Notes under the pieces: generated by a model
The model's database searches: none
What the model saw: the letters and a program-made list of their open reading frames with translations, nothing else
What the model was told of the DNA's origin: nothing
Shown: positions 13,110 through 46,729 of the stretch, one piece after another
How positions within the stretch are numbered: the stretch's first letter is position 1
Layout: every line of letters starts with the position of its first letter
Assembly: GCA_050949565.1 (NCBI GenBank)
Contig: JBMNFY010000007.1
Span: 128,001 to 192,000 of the forward strand
Reading direction: 5' to 3'
DNA from: Kiritimatiellia bacterium
Lineage (GTDB): Bacteria; Verrucomicrobiota; Kiritimatiellia; RFP12; UBA1067
Length of the DNA: 64,000 nucleotides
Program-made: the position numbers and the translations under genes

Positions 13110-13655
13110 TCTGCGAGTATAGTGTACCGCTCCAACGGATGCAAGGGCCTCTGCGGCAGGGCGACGGTCATGGCGCCGAACTCCAGCTTATAGCTTTTCA
13201 CCCCGTCCCCCGTCTCCCTCGTGACGATCTCGATGTGCTTCATGGGGCAGGATGCCGCCAGTTCTTCGGCCAGCGCGGTCCGCCGGCCGTGGAGCAGGTT
13301 GCGGTTGCCCACGAGGCGCACGATGTAGTCCAGTTTGCGCCGGTCCAGGCCGTCGAACAGCCAGTCTCCGTCGCCTCCGCGGTCGATGACGTAGATGCCG
13401 CGCTTCTTCGCGCGGGAGCTGATCTGGTCGATGACGCCGAGCACCTCGTCGTTCTGGCTGATGAAGCCCTCCGCCTCGCTCGACCACAGCCGCATGTGCA
13501 ACGGCGTGATCCGGCGGCCGCCGCTCTCGCAGGCGACCGCCAGGCAGGCGCTGTATCCGTTGCCGATCTCCCCCGTGCTCCCGTCCCGGACGCGGGCGAG
13601 ATATTCCATCTTCTTCGCGTACAGCTTACGGATGTCGGTCGGGTCGATGAGGAAC
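13110..13655 (-). pseudogene. Internal fragment of a DDE transposase (IS4-like family)
   Basis: IYVIDRGGD motif and DYIVRLVGNRNL; no N- or C-terminus; near-identical to the fragment at ~29960-30196. Confidence 0.8.
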
Positions 13656-19683: not shown

Positions 19684-22631
19684 ATGCGTAATCCGTTGGT
19701 AGGGGGGGGTATCATTCTTTTTGCGGTCGTGAGCATGAGTAGCGCTCAGGAATCGGTGACGCTTCCCATCGAACGGCGCATGTTGTTTAACGAATGGATG
19801 TTTTTGCCTGCGGTTCGTACTATCACCCGAACTGGACGCATGAGGGGCCTAATCCCCCTGGTGTTGTGCCGCCACGCCGCATGTTGTTGCCCGGAACGAA
19901 TCACTATCATGCGGCGGGATGGCGGTTGACGGCGTGCCGCACCGGCACATCGGCGGGGCCGACGGGGCAGGGCGTTAATTTCATTCCGCCGCTCTCTTAC
20001 AACCCCACGATCCAGACAAACTGGCAGGCGAATTTGCAAAACACCTTGGATGCAAAAATCGAGAGCCCGTTCTACCGGAGGGTATCGGCACCCTCTATTT
20101 TGAGGCCATCAACGTGTTCTCATCCTACCCGACTGAAATCACCGTTGAGATCGCCACCAATATGCTGGAGTATCTGTATCTGGGGGGCGGCGTCACAAAT
20201 GTCATGTACCCGGTCGTCAGAGCAGTTTTCATACAATTGGCAAGTCCTCGACGTGTTGCCCCTTGCGGCGGCATCATCTAACGATTTTACGCGCTATCAA
20301 CGGTTGTTGCAGTGCCGTACGCCGGCCAGATTTCGTATTCGTAGAACGGGAGACGTATACTCTACACAACCGCTAGACAATGCGCTTACCGCGATCGATA
20401 ACATCTGCGCCTCATATCCCCCGGCGGATGTCGTGTTGGTTCGTCCGGCCGTGGTCTTCAAGCCGGGGTATCCCGCCACCGGTGAGCCGTGTGTGATCCG
20501 GTGCGAAGTTAGTTGCGTGGGGACAAACTGGAATGAACGGACCGATCATACGAACCGCGCGATGACGGTTCACTATAGATGGCGGTATCTGGACCAGATG
20601 TCCAACGCATGGGCCAGTGTACCGATGAGCTATGTTGCGGGGTCGGGCGTCGGCGATGGCGAGATGTATGAGGCGACCTTGCCCGCGCAGGCCGATATCG
20701 GCGATCTGGAGTATTTCTTTGAATGTGACTTTGAAGGGTATCGTTATAGGCACCTTGATTATACGGGCTCGGGCTATGCGTACACGACGGAGTGGCTGTC
20801 GCCCCGTATTTTGCGCGGCGACACGGCGGTGGAGGGCGGGCGCGAGTTTTACACGCGGTTGCGGCCCATGGCCTCGTCCTTTGGCGAGATGCTGCTGGTG
20901 GTCGGCGAATCGGGCGCCGAACAGACGACGGTGGTTATGACGCCGCTTGAAACCGGACGCTGGCGCGGTATCATCCCGCTTGCGGGCCGAGCTCCTACCA
21001 ACATCTGCTTCTACCTGCGCGGCGAAGGCCAGTATGACGCGGTCGCCGATGCCTTCCTGCCCGATCCGGTGTATTGGAGCGACGCATCACAGACGGTACC
21101 TTCTCCCTTGCCGCTGACAGGCACGTGTGACAGCGGTGCCGTTCCGCCGAATCACCGCATCCGCATCGCAACGGCCGGAAGCAGTTGTGTGGAGGTCTTG
21201 TTTGATGAGGTGTCCGGCACCTATTGGACCGCGCGCGCGGAGTACCAGAATTTCAACAGCCAGACGGCGGACACGGATCCGATTCAAGATCGTGATCAGC
21301 CTTTCCTGCAATCGCCAGCGCTCTCCTTCCCGTTGGGGTCGCTCACATTCATGGCCCGCGCCTACGACGTGGCGTCTCCGGCGCGGATCGCGGTGTATGC
21401 GTCGACCAACGGATGGGACGCGCCCGCCGAGAGTTGGTTTGAGGTACATGCGTTCTCCGGCATTGCGCACGTTCCATACCGAACCTACCGATTTGTACCG
21501 GCGACGCCGGTGCAGTATGACGCGATCCGCTTGGTGGTTGCGGCGGATGGATCGTCGGGGCGGGCTTGCGTGGATGAGGTGGTGATCAGCGAGCTGGGGG
21601 CTGCGGGGGTGCCGCCTAGCGTGAAGGTGTTCGTCCCCACGGAGCCGGTTTCGGAACTCGCGGGGACAGGGGCATATATAAAGAAACGCTTGATTGTCAG
21701 ACTCTCGGAGCCCTATGCGCAGGATGTGACGGTGCGCTTGGATCTTTCGCCGGATGCCAATGCGCAAAATGGTTGCCTTGGCTTGTCGCAAACCAACTTG
21801 GTCTTCGCGGCCGGTGCGGAAGAACAGGTTGTCGACATTGGCCCCCTGGACGGCACGGCTCTTTCGGCAACGGATGGCTTTACGGTCACGCCAGTGGTTG
21901 TGTCGCCGGTTGCCGCGCAGCACCACTACTTGTCTTTGGTCGCGGTTGCGGTGCGGGTCCTAAACGAGGCCCCCGTGATTGTTGAGCCAGCCGGTGGCAT
22001 CGCATCGCTGCCCGCGTCGTTCTTCGTCCAGAGCGGACAGCCGCATTCCTTCTTCTGGAACGTAACGGATGCCGCAGCGGACAGCAGTGCCGATGTGGGG
22101 AGTGGAATGAAGATCACATGGCACTTCGGCGATGATACGTGGTCGGTGGCTTGGGGGGCAAGCGGCACGATCGAGCATACGTATGCCAACGTGGGTGACC
22201 GGGTGGTCAGAATGATAGCAGAAGACAAGGACGGCGGTTTTGATGAAGTTCAGTTTAGAGTCAGAGTCGCGACAGAACCCGTGACACTGTCGACCCCGGT
22301 GCCGGTTCCCCTCGCATGGTTGGATCTGTATCCGTCGGCGTTGGCAGCGGCTGGCGGCAATTACGAGTCGGCGGCGCTGGGCGACGTGGACGGCGACGGC
22401 CATACGACTTGGCAAGAGTATGTAACCGGCTCGGATCCGACGAACACGCTCTCTATCCTCCGCGCCCACATCACCGTTGACGGCGGGACGGCGCAGGTCA
22501 CATGGACGCCGGATCTCGGCCCGGTCGCCCGGTGCTACACGGTTGAAGGCAAGACGAACCTGACGGATGGGGTTTGGCTGGAAAGTGGACCCGGCATGCG
22601 TTTCTTCAGGGTCAGGGTGGCGTTGCCGTAA
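19684..22631 (+). CDS. Large secreted protein with PKD domain and C-terminal DxDGDG...QEY..GSDP / RFFRV domain; frameshifted near 19800
   Basis: GGAGG RBS plus MRNPLVGGGIILFAVVSMSSAQE signal peptide; WHFGDD PKD motif; DVDGDGHTTWQEYVTGSDP. Confidence 0.7.
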
Positions 22632-22642
22632 AGGTGAGAAAC

Positions 22643-22917
22643 GGGATCGTGTTTTGACGCGAGACAGTCGAGGGGTGCAAAGCGTTTTCGCGGTGCGGTA
22701 AGGTGCCGCCGTGGCAAGGCGAACGAGACACCGCGGACAGGATGGACGGCGTGGCTGAAAACACGAAATGTCTAATGTCAAACGCGAGACAGTCGAGGGG
22801 TGCAAAGCGTTTTCGCGGTGCGGTAAGGTGCCGCCGTGGCAAGGCGAACGAGACACCGCGGACAGGATGGACGGCGTGGCTGAAAACACGAAATGTCTAA
22901 TGTCAAACTACGACCCC
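22643..22917. repeat. Repeat family A: MITE-like element with imperfect terminal inverted repeats and an internal 125-bp tandem duplication
   Basis: Left GGGATCGTGTTTTGAC (22643-58) and right GTCAAACTACGACCCC (22902-17); identical 125-bp units start at 22657 and 22782. Confidence 0.85.
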
Positions 22918-23361
22918 GGTAACCTGGAAATCATTGATGCGGAATTCACGCCTGAGTTCCTTAAGATTTCACCAAGTGCATTAGCGATGGATACCGTGCT
23001 TTCGGCGTCGAAGCGTTATTATCGAGACTGCGGAAAGTGGCCTGATCTCGGCGAAGGACTTGCGTCACTCGTTCAGGAGGATCATGTAGAAGGATGGAAC
23101 GGGCCGTACATTCCTCACCGTCTTTTGAGTGACGGGTTTCTTTGTGACTCGTGGGGAAATCAATATCGGATTCTTATGACGCAAACACGGCTGTCTCTCG
23201 TCTCTGCTGGGCACGACGGCATGTTTGAAACTAGTGACGACATTGTTGGTTCTGTCACGCTCGAATCCGGAACAGTGATTGAAGCAAATGTGAAGGGCTT
23301 AACACAGAACGAAAAATTTGTCTTCCCAAGTTCACAAGAGGAGTTGTCATGTCGAAATTGA
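22918..23361 (+). pseudogene. 5'-truncated type II secretion GspG-like pseudopilin domain
   Basis: YYRDCGKWP..EGLASLV...GWNGPYI...DSWGNQY...SAGHDG...DDI; no prepilin N-terminus; abuts the GACCCC end of repeat A. Confidence 0.7.
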
Positions 23362-23735
23362 TCGCGGGGGTTTCGATAGTGGTGGGCGGTGGCTTGCTAG
23401 CTGTTGTCCATCAGGACGTGACCGGGATATCGACGGATATGATCCCGATCGGGGTGCGCTTTTTTATTTACCCGCTCGCTGTTCTTGCATACCTCACAGG
23501 CTCGGGCATCTGCCTGTTTTCCTGTTTCAGTCGCTCCCGAAGACATTTATGGTCTTTTGCCGGGATAACGATCAACCTCATTTCCATGATACTCCTGCTT
23601 AGCACATGGCTTTTGATCATTCGCCTCTACGTTCTGCCACTAGGAAGAAGCACATGCGATCAAGGTGAAATTGACGGGATATTAAGGAGAAAACCATGGC
23701 AAAACGTATGCAAGCCATACTTTCGGTGTTTGTAA
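23349..23735 (+). CDS. Hypothetical membrane protein (about 3 TM)
   Basis: Hydrophobic segments; GAGGAG RBS; overlaps neighbouring ORFs. Confidence 0.55.
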   Translation: MSKLIAGVSIVVGGGLLAVVHQDVTGISTDMIPIGVRFFIYPLAVLAYLTGSGICLFSCFSRSRRHLWSFAGITINLISMILLLSTWLLIIRLYVLPLGRSTCDQGEIDGILRRKPWQNVCKPYFRCL

Positions 23736-24280
23736 TGGGTTGTCTCGTGTTTCTGGGGTGTTCATCTCCGCCCAAGAACGTTTTCTATTTACGGGACGAG
23801 ACTAACGGTTTCATACAAGGGCCGTTCTTCACTGAAGAGAACGTGACACCGGGGCTTCATACGCTGAGGGCTGTTTTTCCAACAGACGAGGAATTAGCGA
23901 CCCTGGAAACGTTGAGGACGACTGTCGTTAGGTTCCAGCCGTTCTGTCTTGAAATTGAAGAGGTGATCGAGTATCTAAACGATGCGTTAAATGGGGCAAA
24001 CGATGCCCAAAGCAAAGTCAGCATCAGGGTGGAGTTTCCGCCGTCGTGGGACTTGCCCCAATTTTCAGCAGAAGAGTTGAAACGATGGGGTTACAAAGAA
24101 GGCTTTGGTGGTTCACGAAAATCAAACCTGCCGAAGGTGTCACTCAACACCGCCGGAGAACTTTCTGTTTACAACATATTACATGCGCTGCCGGTGATAT
24201 GGTCGATACCGATCCGGTTTTCGATTGATGGAGAGACCGCTGTGTTGACAGTCGCCGATTATGATGATGTCTGTTATTGA
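23696..24280 (+). CDS. Hypothetical lipoprotein
   Basis: AAGGAG RBS; MAKRMQAILSVFVMGCLVFLG|C lipobox-like. Confidence 0.7.
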   Translation: MAKRMQAILSVFVMGCLVFLGCSSPPKNVFYLRDETNGFIQGPFFTEENVTPGLHTLRAVFPTDEELATLETLRTTVVRFQPFCLEIEEVIEYLNDALNGANDAQSKVSIRVEFPPSWDLPQFSAEELKRWGYKEGFGGSRKSNLPKVSLNTAGELSVYNILHALPVIWSIPIRFSIDGETAVLTVADYDDVCY

Positions 24281-24334
24281 ATGTGTTTCACTACATGACT
24301 TCAGGAGAAAATGAGATGGAGGTAAAAGCAGAAA

Positions 24335-24988
24335 ATGAGCACCAATATTTTTCAAAAACCAAAGAAAGTCAGGAAATGTTTCCGTTTGTTTTTTTTGATA
24401 TTGTCGTTGGCATTGCTTGCCACAACAGTGAAGGCATACCTCTCTGTCCGGCTGGAACTGATGGAGGCACGTGGCGTTTTGTCGGATGTTCTGTTTAGCA
24501 CATGTGTGATCAGCAAGGCCCTTGCAAAAGGAGACGTCGACAAAGCGTTGGCGCTTTCGATAACGAACCAACTTAAAGGGATTCAATACGCGATTAGACG
24601 TGATGTAAAAGATGCCGACATTGATCTGGCAACGGATTTTTGTTTTAGGGAAGGGAGGCTGCCTCTTAACGATGAACAACGTAGTTTTTATTTTGCGTAT
24701 GCGAAGAACTACAGGAATTGGGAATGTTCTGGATGGCTTGGCAACAATCATCCCTTAATGGTTCAGATGATGGATGTTCTATATTACTATTGGGCCGATT
24801 GCCGTCCGAGGTGGACAACATGGAAACCCCGCGATTACGCGACAAACATCAAAGTCGGCTCACCGCAGGAACGCTTGAGGAAACGCCAACCCTGTTTGGA
24901 AGACCAAGTGTCGATCGACGAAAAGCTGCGCCGAGCGCTCGAAAAAGTGGGCGCTGAATCCGACTCGGACGAGGAGAGTGAAGACTAG
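24335..24988 (+). CDS. Hypothetical protein with N-terminal membrane anchor
   Basis: 217-aa ORF, one hydrophobic helix, lower GC. Confidence 0.65.
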   Translation: MSTNIFQKPKKVRKCFRLFFLILSLALLATTVKAYLSVRLELMEARGVLSDVLFSTCVISKALAKGDVDKALALSITNQLKGIQYAIRRDVKDADIDLATDFCFREGRLPLNDEQRSFYFAYAKNYRNWECSGWLGNNHPLMVQMMDVLYYYWADCRPRWTTWKPRDYATNIKVGSPQERLRKRQPCLEDQVSIDEKLRRALEKVGAESDSDEESED

Positions 24989-25024
24989 CATTAGACAAGA
25001 CTTGTGGTTGTCACCGTGAGAAGC

Positions 25025-25170
25025 GGGGTCGTATTTTGATATTGGGTTGCGATGCGAAGCGTTTTCGCGGTGTGGTAAGGTGTCGCCGTGGCAAGGTGAA
25101 TGAGGCACCACCGGAAGGATGGACGGCGTGGCTGAAAACACGAAATGTCTAATGTCAAACTACGATCCCC
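25025..25170. repeat. Repeat family A, single copy
   Basis: GGGGTCGTATTTTGATATTGG ... CTAATGTCAAACTACGATCCCC inverted ends; interior matches the 125-bp unit. Confidence 0.85.
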
Positions 25171-25206
25171 AATGACTCATTCTTGTCTTCTTCCCCCTCC
25201 AGTCGC

Positions 25207-25405
25207 ATTTCCACATATTGAAAGGTGTGGAAGTGAGGGAGCGGCAGCCAATACAGGGGGGGAAATATCGAAAACCCTTTATTTACTACTGTTTTCCGTA
25301 CTATCGGCTTCCATTTTCTCTCTGGCTACTTTTCCACACCTTGAAAGGTGTGGAAGTAGAGTGGGGCGTTTTTGGAGGTGGTTTTTTACGCAGAGACGTA
25401 GGGGT
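25207..25405. repeat. Repeat family B (~200 bp) with two TTCCACA..TGTGGAA hairpins
   Basis: Hairpins at 25209-25232 and 25332-25355; second copy at 28578-28778. Confidence 0.85.
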
Positions 25406-25478
25406 TGGTTTTGTTTTTCCCAATCGAACAGCACAGTAGGGCGGGACGTCTCGGACCGCTCATTACTTGAGACGCCGC

Positions 25479-25507
25479 TTGACCCCAGTAATCAGAATGA
25501 ATACGAT
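25479..25507 (+). promoter_or_regulatory. sigma70-type promoter, repeated module copy 1
   Basis: TTGACC-17 nt-TACGAT. Confidence 0.7.
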
Positions 25508-25580
25508 TTTGACTGAACGGAGGGGCCTGTCCGCCTTTATGAGGCAGACTTAAGAACACTGTTCAGAGCAGAGGATAAAA

Positions 25581-26252
25581 ATGGATGATGCAACAAGCAA
25601 AACCATCGGCATTTTTGCTTTTATGTTCCTGCCGTTGATTGTTTCAGTCATCGTGTTTCTACTTGGCGATGGCTTTAAGCGGCGGATCTCATCTGGCCTT
25701 TCAATACTGTTTTCTTTGATCTTATGGGCCTATGTCTGCAAAGTGACTGCAAATCCGGAATATATGTTTCCCATTTTGCATGCTATCTATCCCATAGTCT
25801 GCGCAGGCGCTTTTGTTGTGTTTTTCATATTTGAGCTGTTCTTTTGGTATGTTGTAAAGAAAAGGCGTATCGCCAAATTGAGAAAACATCTCCAAATGCA
25901 AGGCAAGCTTGGGACCACAGACTTTATTGCGCAGGTGTCGATAGATGACGTTGGACGGCTGCGTATCGCGCCAAGAACACAATCCTTTCCAGCCATACAG
26001 AAAGTGTATGACGATATTATGTGGGATGCTGAGCGGCATGACCTTTGCCCGGCAAAACGGCATGAGTGGGGCTGTCTAAGGTGGTGCCGACACATAATAA
26101 AGGGGGTGGCATCGTCATATGGGTGCACGCTTGCGCTTCATCCTGAAACGCACTGGGTGGATGTCCCGTCAAGGCTGAAGTCTGACATTGAAAGTCTGCT
26201 CAAAAAATCATGGGAGCGTCATGTTGATGACAACATCAACCGAGTCGGTTAA
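25581..26252 (+). CDS. Hypothetical membrane protein (3 TM plus soluble C-terminal domain)
   Basis: GAGGA RBS; 223-aa ORF. Confidence 0.7.
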   Translation: MDDATSKTIGIFAFMFLPLIVSVIVFLLGDGFKRRISSGLSILFSLILWAYVCKVTANPEYMFPILHAIYPIVCAGAFVVFFIFELFFWYVVKKRRIAKLRKHLQMQGKLGTTDFIAQVSIDDVGRLRIAPRTQSFPAIQKVYDDIMWDAERHDLCPAKRHEWGCLRWCRHIIKGVASSYGCTLALHPETHWVDVPSRLKSDIESLLKKSWERHVDDNINRVG

Positions 26253-26266
26253 CCGAAGAACGATGC

Positions 26267-26295
26267 TTGACCCCGGCAGGCAGAACTAATATGAT
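26267..26295 (+). promoter_or_regulatory. sigma70-type promoter, repeated module copy 2
   Basis: TTGACC-17 nt-TATGAT. Confidence 0.7.
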
Positions 26296-26331
26296 CCGTT
26301 AGCTTCAGGACATGAACAAATTACAGAAGAT

Positions 26332-27896
26332 CACTAGCATCCCATAGGCGGGATAATTCACCCTTACCCATGTGGATTTGCTTGGATTTTTGATGTCTTT
26401 TTTGAGGTTTCAGGTTAGAGGTTTTCCCGGAGCGACCGGCCGTTTCGCGTTTTTGTTGGGTTTTACGGCCCTGCTGTCCCATAGTCGAGCCGCCAAAAAT
26501 CGAAAAAGGCCTGTAAAGGCGGGGGTTTTTCGCGGGGTTCACCAGGTTTTGGCCGCGGTGCTGTCCCATAGATTTTGAGGATCTCGACCAGGTCGCGCTT
26601 GACCCACACCGCCGCGCGCACGACGCCCGCGAGGCGCGAGAAGCTCAGCTCCCAGTCCGCGACATGGCTCATGAACCGCAGCAGGAGATGCACGAGCATC
26701 CCCGTCCAGATCTGCCACTTGACCGCGTTCTCGTTGTAGCCGACGAAGTCGCGGATCTGGCAGGTCTGCTTGAGTTCCTTGAAGAACAGCTCGACGGCCC
26801 ACCGCGCCCGGTACAGTTCCGCGATGGTGCGCGCGCTCCAGTCGAGGTTGTTCGTCAAGAAGGTCATCTCCTTCATCTTGCCGTCCACCTCGACGTTCGC
26901 GGTCACGCGGCGCAGGGGGACGGGATAGAGCTTCTTGGAGCGGGCGAGGGCGGGCTCGACGAGTTCGTCGCCGACGATGCTCGCGTCCCGGTTCTCCGGC
27001 AGGCGCCTGACGCGTTTGAACTTCATGTTCGTTTTCTGCCTGACCACGAAGAAGATGCCGCGGGCTCGCAGGCCGTCGAGGAAGGAGAAGTCCGTGTAGG
27101 CGCGGTCGGCGAGGCACACGTCGCCCGCCTTCAGCCCGGCGCAGAGCGTCTTCGCCCGGGTGGAGTCGTGGTGGCCCGCGTCCTCCACGACGGCGAAGGC
27201 GGGCAGGCGGCTGCCCACGTCGAGGTTCATGTGCAGCTTTGCCGCCGCCTTCTTCCTGCGGTGCCGCGCCCAGTCGATGCAGTTCAGGCACAGCCTGATC
27301 GTGCTGGAGTCTATGGCGAAGATCCCGCGCTTCATCCGCGCTAAGAAGCCCTTATGCCTTTTGTACTGCCCGAACCCCGGACAGACGGAGACCAGATGCT
27401 CGAAGACTTCCCAGTACAGTCGCTCGGCCATGGCCGCGTCACGGTGCCGGTTCGCGTTGGAAAACGTGTTGCGTTTCGGCGGCTGCGCACCCCGGATGTT
27501 GCGCCACTCGCCCTCGTGGACGCGCGCCGCGTCCACGATCCCGTTGAGGCTGTCGCAGCCCGCGAGCTGCCCGTACATCAGCGCGACAACGTGGCTCACG
27601 GCCGACCACTTGCGGATGTCGAGCTTGTGCCCGTCGGCGAGCCGCTGGATCATCCCGGGAGGAATCCATTGGACGAGCTGCCGCAGCACGGTGTATTCTG
27701 TCTTCGTCGGCTTCGGGGGCGTGGCCCCGAGCAATTGGGGTATCAGCTCTTTCATGCGCCTGTAGGCTACAGGCAATCGCCTCCGAAGCCGACACTTTTT
27801 TGCGAAATTTCGGGGTTGACGGTTTTCGCCCCCCCAGCATAATAAGTGCCAATCATGGGGACCGGTGTTGCCGGTCTGCCCTATGGGATGGTAGTG
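26332..27896 (-). mobile_element. Complete IS4-family insertion sequence (1,565 bp)
   Basis: 17-bp TIRs CACTAGCATCCCATAGG / CACTACCATCCCATAGG; 9-bp TSD ACAGAAGAT at 26323-31 and 27897-905. Confidence 0.95.
26463..27755 (-). CDS. IS4-family DDE transposase (DUF4372-like N-terminus)
   Basis: AIDSSTI, DRAY, YRARWAVELFFKELKQ motifs; likely start MKELIPQ. Confidence 0.92.
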   Translation of the reverse strand: MKELIPQLLGATPPKPTKTEYTVLRQLVQWIPPGMIQRLADGHKLDIRKWSAVSHVVALMYGQLAGCDSLNGIVDAARVHEGEWRNIRGAQPPKRNTFSNANRHRDAAMAERLYWEVFEHLVSVCPGFGQYKRHKGFLARMKRGIFAIDSSTIRLCLNCIDWARHRRKKAAAKLHMNLDVGSRLPAFAVVEDAGHHDSTRAKTLCAGLKAGDVCLADRAYTDFSFLDGLRARGIFFVVRQKTNMKFKRVRRLPENRDASIVGDELVEPALARSKKLYPVPLRRVTANVEVDGKMKEMTFLTNNLDWSARTIAELYRARWAVELFFKELKQTCQIRDFVGYNENAVKWQIWTGMLVHLLLRFMSHVADWELSFSRLAGVVRAAVWVKRDLVEILKIYGTAPRPKPGEPREKPPPLQAFFDFWRLDYGTAGP

Positions 27897-28361
27897 ACAG
27901 AAGATCATCCTGATGGCAGCGTTTCTGATGAGCGCGTGTGCGCTTCTTCGGACATTTTCTTTGTTTCCCGTCACGAGGATCAACAATGAAAAGGATTCGC
28001 CTTTTGCGGCTGCGACCGCAACTTACATGAGGAATTGCCTGCGCGAGATGACCCGTCAGGGGAGTGCCGTGCACTTTGTCTTTCCCGAAAACAGTTACGG
28101 CATAATGGTGGAGACCACGCCTAACACAAACTATCCAAACCTGAAATATCCCAGATGGACCGGCGATTTTGTCTTGGGGGTTGGCGAATCATTCAGGGGT
28201 CGCCCGGATCATCATTCCAGCGGAAGATATACGCTCAAAGCGATTGAGCCGACCGGTGTCGTACTGGCCTACGACACCAGATTTGACCACAGGTCTTTCG
28301 GTAAAAATCTGATCAACGTGAACCGAGGCGAACTTCGGATTCCGTGGAAGAACAAGGAAGA

Positions 28362-28421
28362 GGCCAACAAGCTGCCGGAAGGTACACGCTGACGTGCCGT
28401 TCCTCACCACTGACATTGAGT
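28362..28421 (+). other. Degenerate attC-like site overlapping the 3' end of the cassette gene
   Basis: GGCCAAC...GCCGGAAGGTAC...TTCCTCACCACTGACATTGAG; the CAAC start and TGAC(G/A)TT end resemble attC, with R' degenerate. Confidence 0.45.
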
Positions 28422-28577
28422 AAGAGAAAATGAAAATGTAGTACATTCATAAACACCAATGCGCTTGATCTCGTGGTGCCGCAAGATGGGACATTACGGT
28501 TTTGTATTTCTATGAACGGAGGAGGTGTTTCGCGTAACGAAACACTGCTATACCTCAAGCCTGGAGAGAGGGCTGGT

Positions 28578-28778
28578 ATTTTCCACATATTGAAAGGTGT
28601 GGAGATAAAAGAACGGCGGTTGACACAGGGGCGAAAACATTAAAAACCCTTTATTTACTACTATTTTCCGTACTATCGGCTTCCATTTTCTCTCTGGCTA
28701 CTTTTCCACACCTTTCAAGGTGTGGAAGTGGAGTGGGGCGTTTTTGGGAGGACTCTTTTTTGACACAGAGACGTAGGG
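28578..28778. repeat. Repeat family B, second copy
   Basis: Hairpins at 28581-28603 and 28704-28727; same 123-bp spacing as copy 1. Confidence 0.85.
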
Positions 28779-28801
28779 GATTGGCTCTATGAAAGCGACG
28801 C

Positions 28802-28830
28802 TTGACCCTGGCAATCAGAATGAATACGAT
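28802..28830 (+). promoter_or_regulatory. sigma70-type promoter, repeated module copy 3
   Basis: TTGACC-17 nt-TACGAT. Confidence 0.7.
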
Positions 28831-28856
28831 CTTGCTCCATCAGTTTGGTGTGCAAC

Positions 28857-29297
28857 ATGAACTCATTCGAGAAAGCGGTGTACAGCGTCCTTGATGTCTG
28901 CATCTCCTCCGATGTCGGACTGGTTGTTTTTCTTTTAGGCGGCTTCGTGCTTTGCGGTATCTTTTCCCTTCTGCTCCTCGTCCCATGATCACGTCAGATT
29001 CCACACCGTTTCTATGTCGCTGCGGCTGCGGCACTTCCGGTGATCGTCCTAATCTATGCTCTGGTTTTCCATCTATTGGTCAGGGGCCGAAAGCCGACTA
29101 TCATGTTGGCGCTCAGCCCTGCGCTCCTGGCAGTCATCCCGTCGGTCGTTGCCTTGGTCTCTACTATCCGGAGAGACTCGGTGCCAAGGCGCGCTCTTAT
29201 CGTCGTCGTATTGGTTTGCGTGATTCTCGTTCAACTCTGGACGGCACTTGTCCTTTGGCTTGCGACGAACTATGGATTCATGGGAGCTTCGTGTTGA
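28857..29297 (+). pseudogene. Small membrane protein gene with in-frame TGA at 28986-28988
   Basis: MNSFEKAVYS...LLVP* continues in the same frame into hydrophobic ORF 29040-29297. Confidence 0.65.
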
Positions 29298-29340
29298 TAA
29301 CAACATCAACTGCGCGAGTTGATTAACTGAAAAGCGACAC

Positions 29341-29369
29341 TTGACCCCAACAATCAGAACGAATACGAT
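29341..29369 (+). promoter_or_regulatory. sigma70-type promoter, repeated module copy 4
   Basis: TTGACC-17 nt-TACGAT. Confidence 0.7.
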
Positions 29370-29439
29370 TTTGATCGGATGAGGGGGGGGGCTATTCGCC
29401 CTTGTGAGGTGGATCGAACGACACTGTTGAGAGATAAAC

Positions 29440-29935
29440 ATGAAGATGGGGTTGATACTCTTGGCCTTGATGCTTTGCCCGTCCGGCGGAATATGGGCCA
29501 ATGAGCGCCCGCAAATGCTCGACATTGCCGTCGGCGGTTTTGATGGTCCATCGTACAGCGTCACGCTTACAAACGGTGTCTTGGCATATCGATCCGGCGG
29601 AAGTATGTCTCTGCTCGCTCTTGGAGACAAAGCCGGAGATAGTCTCACCGACCGATTCCGAATGGAGAGCGTTCAGAACCTCGCGCGATCAGATCGGGGC
29701 CTGGAACTGGAAGACAAACTACGTGGACCCGAACGTACTGGATGGTACGGAATGGCATGTCATAGTGAAGTATGGCTCGAAGGCCGTTGAGAGTGAAGGA
29801 GCAAACGCTTATCCACACGGGAAGGGCGCAGATCCAGGCCCTGCCTTCAAAAAACTGCTGACCGCAGTGAGCAAATTGCTTTCGGAGAGAGAGTTCAAAT
29901 GCTGGTCGAATTTGAGGCCGGAGGGTACACACTAA
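29440..29935 (+). pseudogene. Secreted hypothetical protein, frameshifted near 29600
   Basis: Signal peptide plus GGFDGPSYSV (ORF 29440) continues as EWRAF...VLDGTEW...EGANAYP (ORF 29501). Confidence 0.7.
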
Positions 29936-29959
29936 GAATGAAATCAATTCTCGCGTGCG

Positions 29960-30302
29960 TGCACGGGCGAGATCGGCAACGGATACAGCGCCTGCCTGGC
30001 GGTCGCCTGCGAGAGCGGCGGCCGCCGGATCACGCCGTTGCACATGCGGCTGTGGTCGAGCGAGGCGGAGGGCTTCATCAGCCAGAACGGTGAGGTGCTC
30101 GGCGTCATCGACCGGATCAGCTCCCGCGCGAAGAAGCGCGGCGTCTACGTCATCGACCGAGGAGGCGACGGAGACTGGCTGTTCGACGGCCTCGGACGGC
30201 TCTGCGCCACAGAAAATGGAACGGCTACAAGCCGCCAGACCCCGAATCAAACCCGCTCGGACTGGTCTTTCTGGAATGACCAGATTTTTTGGGGAAACTC
30301 CT
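29960..30302 (+). mobile_element. IS remnant (internal transposase fragment plus probable right end)
   Basis: Matches the 13.1-13.6 kb fragment (VIDRGGDGDWLFDGL); TTTTTTGGGGAAACTCCT resembles an IS end. Confidence 0.7.
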
Positions 30303-30352
30303 TGCACCTAAAGCGTTGTTGGCCACGTCTAAATCGGGTATAGTATCCTTCC

Positions 30353-30862
30353 ATGATTCGGACGGGAATAGGGTATGACTCGCATCGGCTGGCCGAAGGG
30401 CGTCGTCTGGTTATCGGAGGGGTCGAGATTCCGCATACGTGCGGGCTGCTCGGGCACTCTGATGCTGACGTGCTGGTCCATGCGCTGTGCGATGCCTTGC
30501 TCGGTGCGGTCGCTGACGGCGATATAGGCACTCACTTCCCCGACCGCGATCCGCAGTGGGAAGATGCCGACAGCACGGTGTTGCTGCGCCAGGTGACGGA
30601 GCGTTTAACGCAGGCGGGCTGGCGCATTCTGAATACGGATGCCACGGTCGTGACTGAAGCGCCGCGCCTGGCGCCCTACATCCCTTCGATGCGGACGCGA
30701 CTGGCCGAGGTGATGGGGCTTGAGCCGTCGCGTGTGTCTGTCAAAGCCAAGAGCAATGAGGGCATGGATGCCGTCGGCCGCCGTGAGGGCATCGCCGCCA
30801 TGGCGGTGGCGACGGTCTGCCGTGCCTCTGCCGCCAACCTTTCACTTTCAGGAGATCAATAA
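30353..30862 (+). CDS. ispF: 2-C-methyl-D-erythritol 2,4-cyclodiphosphate synthase
   Basis: GIGYDSH, GHSDADV, GDIGTHFPD motifs. Confidence 0.97.
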   Translation: MIRTGIGYDSHRLAEGRRLVIGGVEIPHTCGLLGHSDADVLVHALCDALLGAVADGDIGTHFPDRDPQWEDADSTVLLRQVTERLTQAGWRILNTDATVVTEAPRLAPYIPSMRTRLAEVMGLEPSRVSVKAKSNEGMDAVGRREGIAAMAVATVCRASAANLSLSGDQ

Positions 30863-46321: not shown

Positions 46322-46729
46322 GGCACGCTCCTCGTTATGTGCGGCGGTAAGCGTGCGAAGCTGTCGTCCATACGCTTACGCGAACAACGGCCCACAGGCA
46401 CTCTCGTCCATCCTTGGGTCAGAGCCTCGCTCCTCCACCGCAGAAAGAAAACGGCGTGAATATACGTGATTCGCGTTGCTGTTTCAAGTGCTTTGCATAA
46501 TTTTTTCATTTTGTCCTTGCCTATAAGAACAGAATGCCATTATTATACCCCTATAACTGGTTTTCGGTTTTCTTCGGGGTCCCTCGCCTTTTGCGTAACG
46601 CAGGTGATGCATACGGCGAGGTTCCGGGGCATGATGACATGCCCGTTGCAGCAGAACGGGCCATGGGTTTTGGTGCAACCGGCGCAAACAACAACATGGC
46701 TGGACAGTGGAAACACAAGGAACGCAGGC

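Follow-up and report, generated by a model that had tools for sequence, protein, structure and literature searches.

Among described systems, the closest to the locus reported here are clusters of attC sites lacking integrases (CALIN) and degraded sedentary chromosomal integrons. Where Cury et al. (2016, PMC4889954) treat these clusters, their origin is discussed as open; integrase loss, rearrangement and the activity of insertion sequences (ISs) are proposed origins, and attI is described as unknown for most integrons. Our locus is an array of eight small co-oriented open reading frames (ORFs; ORF listing and translations) in Kiritimatiellia bacterium, at positions 22640-30302 of a stretch of 64,000 nucleotides. 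This stretch, the window, corresponds to C7:128001-192000, that is, contig C7 of genome G000 (4.66 Mb, 21 contigs). The array is bordered by the 3' end of a PKD-domain protein gene on the left (to 22631) and by ispF on the right (30353). Its GC content is 0.47-0.57, compared with ~0.60 in the flanks. We consider it probable that the array is the decayed and now frozen remainder of an integron-type cassette platform without an integrase, which unrelated mobile repeats colonised later.

The array resembles CALIN and degraded chromosomal integrons in its co-oriented orphan genes without an integrase, in the presence of IntI elsewhere in the genome and in one gene that belongs to an integron-cassette family of Pfam. 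It is unlike them in keeping attI-type sites together with a promoter, with several attI paralogues in one array and ~13 in the genome. A CALIN comprises at least two attC sites with no integrase gene (intI) nearby; here, intI is missing, but attC was not detected in a home-made scan, which could miss weak sites. Compared with a complete integron, the array lacks an adjacent intI and a detected attC, and it retains putative attI sites with a promoter. Integrase-mediated insertion outside att sites, in the part of the work of Loot et al. that concerns it (bioRxiv 10.1101/2022.09.11.507474), is comparable as a route for cassettes away from the platform, with the integrase in trans. Insertion into such loosely defined genomic sites would not copy an attI plus promoter, whereas here the docking site itself is repeated. 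Our literature searches returned no account of attI paralogues dispersed over a genome, and a 'second attI' appeared only in two papers on Salmonella genomic island 1. For integrons and Kiritimatiellaeota, only resistome surveys were found.

The original prediction had described low-GC genes, several of them decayed, interleaved with four kinds of repeat modules (A, B, C and P) that share a GACCC(C) core, and had suggested gene capture or shuffling by an enzyme acting in trans. The description of the genes and repeats holds. Several ORFs are frameshifted, 5'-truncated or split by an IS. A repeat search of the window returned three copies of A, two of B, two of C and three of P plus a truncated fourth, and GACCC(C) is present at every coordinate that had been given. 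The window was correctly predicted to lack an integrase and an HUH transposase: neither TIGR02249 (integron integrase) nor PF01797 (Y1 transposase) had a match on contig C7 in the whole-genome search. The module on which our reading rests is P (start positions in the repeat search: 25473, 28796 and 29335). Its copies in the window are as follows.

25467-25568, + strand: P1, a full copy of the putative attI/promoter module, with -35 TTGACC at 25479-25484 (GACCCC at 25481), -10 TACGAT at 25502-25507, a hairpin and the core AACACTG|TT (GTT at 25561); it precedes ORF6.
26208-26311, + strand: first copy of module C plus a truncated P, with palindrome GTTGATGACAACATCAAC at 26223-26240, -35 TTGACC at 26267, -10 TATGAT at 26290 and GTT at 26298; the attI core and the hairpin are missing.
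28791-28856, + strand: P2, a truncated P, with -35 TTGACC at 28802 (GACCCT at 28804), -10 TACGAT at 28825 and GTT at 28843; the attI core is missing; it precedes ORF9.
29328-29433, + strand: P3, a full copy of the putative attI/promoter module, with -35 TTGACC at 29341 (GACCCC at 29343), -10 TACGAT at 29364 and the core GACACTG|TT (GTT at 29426); it precedes ORF10.

The only integron integrase above the TIGR02249 cut-off in the whole genome lies on another contig (C17:750483-751412, 358.6 bits, open frame). It is part of a complete integron (C17:745-751.4k), of which near-identical copies occur in G001, G004 and G092. All relatives used here are metagenome bins; G001, G004 and G005 are congeners of G000, the source genome. 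Low-GC cassettes lie upstream of intI, and two attC sites with long hairpins follow the first of them (ATCGAAC...GACGTTGGGA and TCCCAAC...GACGTTAGGG). From intI to cassette 1, the sequence comprises GCGCTTGACC, 17 nt, TAACAT, a small GC hairpin (loop TTCGCGA), ...GGTAGGCTCAATAACACTGTTCGA, a ribosome-binding site and ATG. This region is colinear with P1 and P3 in a MAFFT alignment. An alignment of 14 copies gave AAAATGnGCGCTTGACC-N17-TAaCAT ... GCCCGCCTTCGCGAGGTaGGCTCAATAACACTG|TT as common to the P copies and the region between intI and cassette 1. Judged by these alignments, P is a paralogue of the attI-plus-cassette-promoter region beside the C17 intI.

The window copies share the promoter, the hairpin and the ACACTG|TT core with the C17 integron, and their ORFs start 10-25 nt after GTT, as cassette 1 does. 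In the full copies, the core stands 10-20 nt ahead of the ribosome-binding site of the ORF. The differences are that the window and contig C7 have no intI and no long-hairpin attC and that the window copies are a subgroup of their own, diverged in the -10 box (TACGAT) and in the flank of the core. Ahead of ORF8 (26267-26300) and ORF9 (28802-28845), the -35 and -10 boxes are kept, and the hairpin and core are lost.

The genome contains 12 P copies at E ≤0.0032 in a search with an nhmmer profile and 13 in a search with a covariance model. An independent profile was built from eight copies that all lie outside the window and outside G004; its matches in the 64-kb window were P1 (7.7e-12), P3 (3.6e-11) and P2 (0.011) alone. 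A promoter consensus scan flagged all four P copies of the window (four of the nine sites found) as TTGACC-17-TACGAT or TTGACC-17-TATGAT. The GACCC(C) at 25481, 26269, 28804 and 29343 is therefore part of a -35 hexamer. It lies ~80 nt from the G|TT of the core, which in turn is ~60 nt downstream of the -10 box.

In a survey of the family, 18 of 61 genomes had any P match. Multi-copy P accompanies an integrase frame of 494 aa (covariance model: 13 copies in G000, nine in G092 and two in the fragmented bin G001), and the remaining genomes have at most two. G004, outside the 61-genome draw, has seven BLAST matches to the C17 P module.

The point of exchange can be placed by comparing the integrons of G000 and G001. 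They are 97.2% identical through intI and P, diverge right after ACACTGTTCGA and have different first cassettes. As the two share intI and P and part just past G|TT, this position is taken as the crossover. Thus, attI can be defined here purely by comparison, from a shared platform with a different first cassette. In a genome of another family (G048), GAAGTAGGCTCAATAACACTGTTC stands at the equivalent position upstream of intI and the GTAGGCTCAATAACACTGTTC core is retained; next to intI in that family, the core is conserved and the promoter part is not.

Cassette replacement is seen at a P copy that has no integrase. The copy at C10:66.8k has attI-proximal sequence and a 35-nt intI remnant (94% identity) upstream, and it is the only one of all P copies checked that retains such a remnant. 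A tblastn search of the 6 kb ahead of every P copy, with IntI as the query, found none near the window copies. The orthologous locus of G004 is 97-99% identical in both flanks. From the attI G|TT (66931|2) to the terminal attC G|TT (67775), the cassettes of G000 and G004 differ, and each has an attC-like hairpin end. Since the loss of intI is shared and the cassettes are different, an integrase must have been at work in trans. Downstream of another P copy, at C17:491351, come an ORF of 200 aa and an attC-like hairpin (ACCTAAC...GACGTTATGC).

P-bearing segments differed between G004 and G000 in all five loci compared: one replacement, two clean presence/absence differences (820 bp and 1277 bp), one 9.2-kb block and one locus without counterpart. 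At two of the G004 loci, the P-bearing insertions were checked for target duplications and a consistent left boundary, and neither was found. P-bearing segments thus vary between congeners; the part of the window compared across DNA sequencing runs is near-identical (see below). The predicted link to integrons and to a recombinase acting in trans is supported by the homology of P to the C17 attI, by the cassette swap on contig C10 and by an integron-cassette domain in ORF6; the window array itself, in contrast, looks frozen.

Further observations concern the integron and its P modules. The C17 integrase frame is 493-494 aa long, and its TIGR02249 match starts at residue 184, leaving an N-terminal extension of ~180 aa; frames of 475-514 aa occur in several other genomes of the order. 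In the second C17 cassette (minus strand), an ORF of 307 aa resembles, by eye, an adenine DNA methyltransferase and another of 249 aa an HNH-type endonuclease; a textbook attC comes after them. In G092, filed in another genus, C4:5000-17000 is 99.65% identical to G000 C17 over 2601 bp (intI, attI module, cassette 1 and attC1) and diverges ~40 nt past attC. This identity reflects either recent horizontal transfer or metagenome cross-binning. In G005, a P module in C202:5700-10834 matches the C17 attI region, together with ~100 nt upstream of it, at 96% identity; no integrase sequence adjoins it, and neither flank was matched in G000. A second small array of P modules and ORFs lies at G000 C17:881300-883300, with a layout like that of the window array: a P copy with a membrane ORF of 171 aa, then other repeats, then a second P with a secreted ORF of 208 aa and one more small ORF. 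The 1277-bp segment present only in G004 (contig C39, compared with G000 C10:36730-36763) starts with a full P and ends with a P-core fragment (GGACTCAATGGCACTG), an arrangement that looks like two ORFs enclosed between a pair of attI-type cores.

The genes of the array and the adjoining features are as follows.

22918-23361, + strand: GspG-like pseudopilin gene with the N-terminal leader and helix missing (Pfam T2SSG 6e-10, profile positions 17-100 of 108; TIGR01710 1e-4).
23349-23735, + strand: ORF3, 128 aa, hydrophobic, without family match.
23696-24280, + strand: ORF4, 194 aa, lipoprotein-like N-terminus, without family match.
24335-24988, + strand: ORF5, 217 aa, without family match; the congener G001 has a DNA match of 67% identity.
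25581-26252, + strand: ORF6, 223 aa, membrane N-terminus and Hfx_Cass5 domain (Pfam PF18287, 7.1e-9, 36.2 bits, cut-off 25).
26312-28392, + strand: ORF8, secreted or lipoprotein-like, split by an IS after codon 7 (parts 26312-26331 and 27897-28392).
28393-28579, unstranded: unique spacer with a short hairpin (GTGTTTCG..CGAAACAC) and no other copy; best attC-scan value -0.073 kcal/nt, branched.
28857-29297, + strand: ORF9, membrane protein with a frameshift or stop (parts 28857-28988 and 29040-29297); missing from the G004 version of the array.
29440-29935, + strand: ORF10, secreted protein, frameshifted (parts 29440-29790 and 29501-29935); the G004 orthologue is internally deleted.
30353-30862, + strand: ispF, right flank, start of synteny conserved across genus and family.

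According to the relic reading, ORF6, ORF8, ORF9 and ORF10 would have entered as cassettes at P sites via the integrase in trans and would have been expressed from the P promoters. A cassette nature is favoured because ORF6 has Hfx_Cass5, the Pfam 'integron cassette protein' domain, and because the ORFs are low-GC orphans. The array would then have frozen, with attC no longer recognisable and two P copies reduced to the promoter. Decay would have included the entry of an IS4-family element into ORF8, frameshifts in ORF9 and ORF10 and an IS remnant at the right end.

The array is regarded as frozen because no attC was detected, two P copies lack the core, genes are broken and the sequence is near-identical in runs of ten studies. 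Part of window positions 27950-29950 is present in 20 runs. Among these are 14 DNA runs, from 10 studies (2016-2025), in which ≥99% of the words sampled from this segment occur; some of them may be the source sample. Contigs of two DNA runs (X5 and X9) are letter-identical to the window over 27867-29998, both junctions of the IS4-family element included. One low-depth X9 contig joins 25472 to 29334 (B1 to P3) in a G004-like arrangement, with 53 letters on the shorter side. ORF6, ORF9 and ORF10 were covered in part, at low depth, by metatranscriptome contigs, which gave no evidence of transcription from P (transcript starts cannot be read from contigs, and DNA carry-over is possible).

In G004, an orthologous piece of the array is 93-97% identical, more eroded and in another context. 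It lacks the IS4-family insertion and the unit formed by P2, ORF9 and the second module C, and it has microhomology deletions in ORF6, ORF8 and ORF10. Beyond it, G004 has one more P-like module and a gene that is missing from G000. From ispF rightwards, the segment is conserved in every relative whose sequence extends there. Upstream of ispF, sequence is available for four relatives (G006, G003, G016 and G009), and the array is missing from all of them; the G004 and G005 contigs stop at ispF. In G005 (contig C272), 40 nt separate the 3' end of the PKD gene from the homologue of window position 46473, in inverted orientation. The segment of ~22.6-46.5 kb, with the array at one end, may thus be inverted between species. 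As the relatives break at the array, it stands at a rearrangement breakpoint, and no 'empty site' can be defined.

The search for attC was made with a home-made scan with forced AAC/GTT pairing and folding with DNA parameters. It recovered both C17 attC sites (-0.264 and -0.227 kcal/nt), which ranked first and third in 6.5 kb. At 22001-30500, six + strand matches reached ≤-0.12, compared with 4.2 per 8.5 kb in 25 background segments; these matches fall in IS elements or are weak. When the intergenic stretches of the array were folded one by one, the best values were -0.045 to -0.114 kcal/nt, with branched folds. The predicted absence of an intact attC is therefore supported by the scan. The two elements that had been called 'attC-like' do not hold: the one at ~29936 is a hairpin in an IS remnant, and 28393-28560 is unique sequence that scores far below a true attC. 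P, or C plus P, was also considered as attC and rejected (no long imperfect hairpin and poor R''/R' complementarity, by eye and by folding); homology to attI is therefore preferred. A conserved RNA structure in P was rejected as well, since one compensatory pair in a 10-pair hairpin is too little. The window gave no match to Rfam at gathering thresholds and none in a tRNA scan.

Several points weigh against reading the array as an integron relic. No site comparable to the C17 attC was found between the array ORFs by the scan of 22001-30500, which weak or degenerate sites could escape, and because no attC was detected, we infer rather than observe that the ORFs arrived as cassettes. The putative integrase-binding part of P1 and P3 deviates (GGCAGACTTAAGAAC and GGTGGATCGAACGAC, compared with the family consensus GGTAGGCTCAATAAC). 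The P hairpin (RNAalifold) has one compensatory change in 10 pairs, and the changes are mostly one-sided. P1 and P3 themselves showed no turnover; in G004, too, P3 is followed by ORF10. The orthologous array of G004 lies on a contig that is a mosaic of five contigs of G000, and some of the differences in context may be assembly artefacts. The left four genes, from the truncated GspG-like gene to ORF5, are all without P and may have no tie to integrons. Finally, the reading does not account for the multiplication of the attI-type module to ~13 copies.

Modules A and B require a different account. REP (repetitive extragenic palindromic) and REPIN sequences with their REP-associated tyrosine transposases (RAYTs), like the IS200/IS605 family, combine a Y1/HUH transposase, inverted short repeats with GTAG and many non-autonomous copies. 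The copies of these modules in the window are as follows.

22644-22917, + strand: A1-A2, tandem pair of a RAYT-derived miniature element, with a degenerate left inverted repeat from ~22644 and a right inverted repeat at 22893-22917 with a GACCCC end.
24989-25169, + strand: A3, third RAYT-derived miniature copy, with a partial extra left-repeat unit, a degenerate left repeat at 25025-25049 and a right repeat at 25145-25169 with a GATCCCC end.
25170-25472, unstranded: B1, REP-like doublet, with palindromes TTCCACA..TGTGGAA at 25209-25232 and 25332-25355, then GTAG.
28580-28795, unstranded: B2, second REP-like doublet, with palindromes at 28581-28604 and 28704-28727.

A1 and A2 are an exact 125-nt duplication (22657-22781 = 22782-22906), to which 25034-25158 in A3 is 82% identical. 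In its full form, A is bounded by a 25-nt inverted repeat (GGGGTCGTAGTTTGACATTAGACAT ... ATGTCTAATGTCAAACTACGACCCC). The right repeat of A2 (C7:150893-150917) matches this repeat at 25 of 25 positions. In the BLAST comparison with the genome, copies of A lie on nine other contigs. A complete element was found at C8:242458-243598, where identical 25-nt inverted repeats enclose an ORF of 351 aa. This ORF matches Pfam Y1_Tnp above the Pfam cut-off (1e-11). Its best NCBIfam model, REP_Tyr_transpos ('REP-associated tyrosine transposase'), gives 53.7 bits and falls short of the cut-off (80); IS200 reaches 17.3 bits. The copy on contig C4 has a partial ORF with the motif ...YHITSRG...NHYHLL. The A modules of the array retain the leader and the first and last codons of the C8 transposase gene. 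As they keep only the ends of this gene, they are internal-deletion derivatives. Like miniature inverted-repeat transposable elements (MITEs) and other IS deletion derivatives, they have shared terminal inverted repeats, an internal deletion and no intact ORF. No target duplications were found around A copies.

The complete element resembles the REP/REPIN-RAYT systems in its Y1_Tnp transposase, inverted GTAG repeats, non-autonomous copies and tandem clusters. It differs in that the 25-nt repeat is not a hairpin palindrome, the short copies are MITE-like and the protein, at 351 aa, is long and does not reach the family cut-off. The 25-nt unit occurs in inverted pairs, but it forms no hairpin and holds a direct GACAT..GACAT. 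The genome has 48 matches to it with at most six substitutions, 36 of them with at most two; it is also present in congeners, and most of the sites are away from variable orphan genes. Between A ends, no gene was seen other than the transposase itself. At the junction of A2 with the GspG-like gene (22917/22918), the right repeat adjoins the truncated gene, and the insertion of A probably truncated it. As an aside, the 25-nt repeat also forms tandem runs of two to four copies with a ~40-nt period before the element body (C8:224096-224200, C8:40813-40992 and C4:29796-29859), which is reminiscent of REP clusters.

The B repeats (25208-25375 and 28580-28747) are 88% identical. The palindrome TTCCACACCTTGAAAGGTGTGGAA has 28 matches (at most four substitutions) at 13 places in the genome, 11 of which are doublets or longer arrays. 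Most are followed by GTAG or ATAG, and the copies lie in intergenic DNA of normal GC content. With near-perfect palindromes beside GTAG and clustered intergenic copies, B is a REP-like genome-wide repeat with no special tie to the array. A, too, is a genome-wide selfish repeat, and neither of the two organises the array. The genome-wide search that the original prediction proposed led from A to a Y1 element on contig C8; A and B proved scattered without a special tie to the array. In the window, the array is probably a relic, and most of its conspicuous repeats (A, B and the IS elements) are unrelated selfish DNA.

The idea of GACCC(C) as one shared core does not survive. GACCCC (22912) and GATCCCC (25164) are the outer tip of the right repeat of A, and in P the motif belongs to the -35 TTGACC. 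On the + strand of the array, GACCCC was observed five times, compared with 1.3 expected from its density in the window. This excess has two unrelated sources, the repeat tips of A and the -35 boxes of P.

Four other explanations were weighed. A wider form of our reading is a distributed integron, with one integrase and about a dozen dispersed promoter-bearing attI-type modules (13 in G000 and nine in G092 by the covariance model, and seven BLAST matches in G004), of which the window array would be an old docking cluster. We put it forward tentatively and with some doubt. If it were true, some integrase-less cassette clusters would have their own attI, which would give them a concrete origin; if it were general, cassette capture would not be confined to the site beside intI, and off-platform cassettes would not necessarily be silent. 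A platform that is still active, where the C17 integrase would serve ~13 dispersed docking sites including P1 and P3 and the partner sites go unrecognised, seems unlikely to us. Cassette replacement with G|TT as its exact boundary at the C10 copy, which has no integrase, the differences between G000 and G004 at five of five loci and an open IntI frame above the family cut-off are consistent with it. However, the array has no detected attC, broken genes and two of four P copies without a core, and over a 2-kb part of it, 14 DNA runs (10 studies) are nearly identical. The X9 contig that joins B1 directly to P3 would fit an active platform, but with 53 letters on its shorter side, the joint may stem from a G004-like relative.

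It is rather improbable that P is the shared promoter or leader of a regulon of small exported proteins, that the array arose by local duplication of B-P and C-P with decay and that P resembles the intI region because the first integron gene has the same promoter. The -35 and -10 boxes are indeed the best conserved part of P and are retained in its truncated copies, B-P and C-P are duplicated blocks of 78-88% identity, and the array differences between G000 and G004 are mostly microhomology deletions. Yet two independent comparisons place the break in homology at the P G|TT, and in another family it is the core beside intI, not the promoter part, that is conserved. Multi-copy P also goes with genomes that have the 494-aa integrase frame, and the duplicated flanks enclose ORFs that are not paralogous: ORF6 is unrelated to ORF9, though both have B-P upstream and C downstream. 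The proposal that a Y1/HUH (RAYT) enzyme shuffles genes by cutting at a GACCC(C) core of all modules is very improbable. Its premise on A was right in part, as A derives from a Y1 element with a full-length transposase on contig C8, ends in GACCCC beside a truncated gene and carries GTAG within its 25-nt repeat, as REP sequences do; nothing, however, indicates that an HUH enzyme moves genes here. In P, GACCC lies in the -35 box, ~80 nt from the crossover, P and C are unlike the A repeat beyond the hexamer, the 48 A sites of the genome and those of congeners are mostly not beside variable orphans, and A ends carry no gene save the transposase. A frozen cassette platform, with A and B as later arrivals, remains our preferred account.

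The remaining features of the array are as follows.

29278-29334, + strand: second module C, with palindrome GTTGATAACAACATCAAC.
26332-27896, - strand: IS4-family insertion sequence in ORF8 (DDE_Tnp_1 3.2e-31), with a 9-bp target duplication ACAGAAGAT at 26323-26331 and 27897-27905.
29961-30303, unstranded: internally deleted IS remnant, which keeps positions 200-439 and 990-1113 of a parent IS of ~1.1 kb with ~17 copies.

The repeat positions of module C are 26208/26241 and 29278/29315. The IS4-family element has inverted ends of 17-18 nt that are 94% complementary; together with its DDE transposase and the target duplication, this is as in IS4. In the IS remnant, the hairpin at 29974-30043 is the top 'attC-like' site of the attC scan. 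A 62-nt near-perfect hairpin (ACGGAACACAC...GTGTGTTCCGT) occurs at C7:199.4k, ~650 nt after a P at C7:198682, and on contig C11, ~3 kb downstream of a P at C11:11146, in opposite orientations; it is a repeat family and not attC. Another partial copy of the multicopy ~1.1-kb IS (~506 bp, inverted) lies at window positions 13145-13650.

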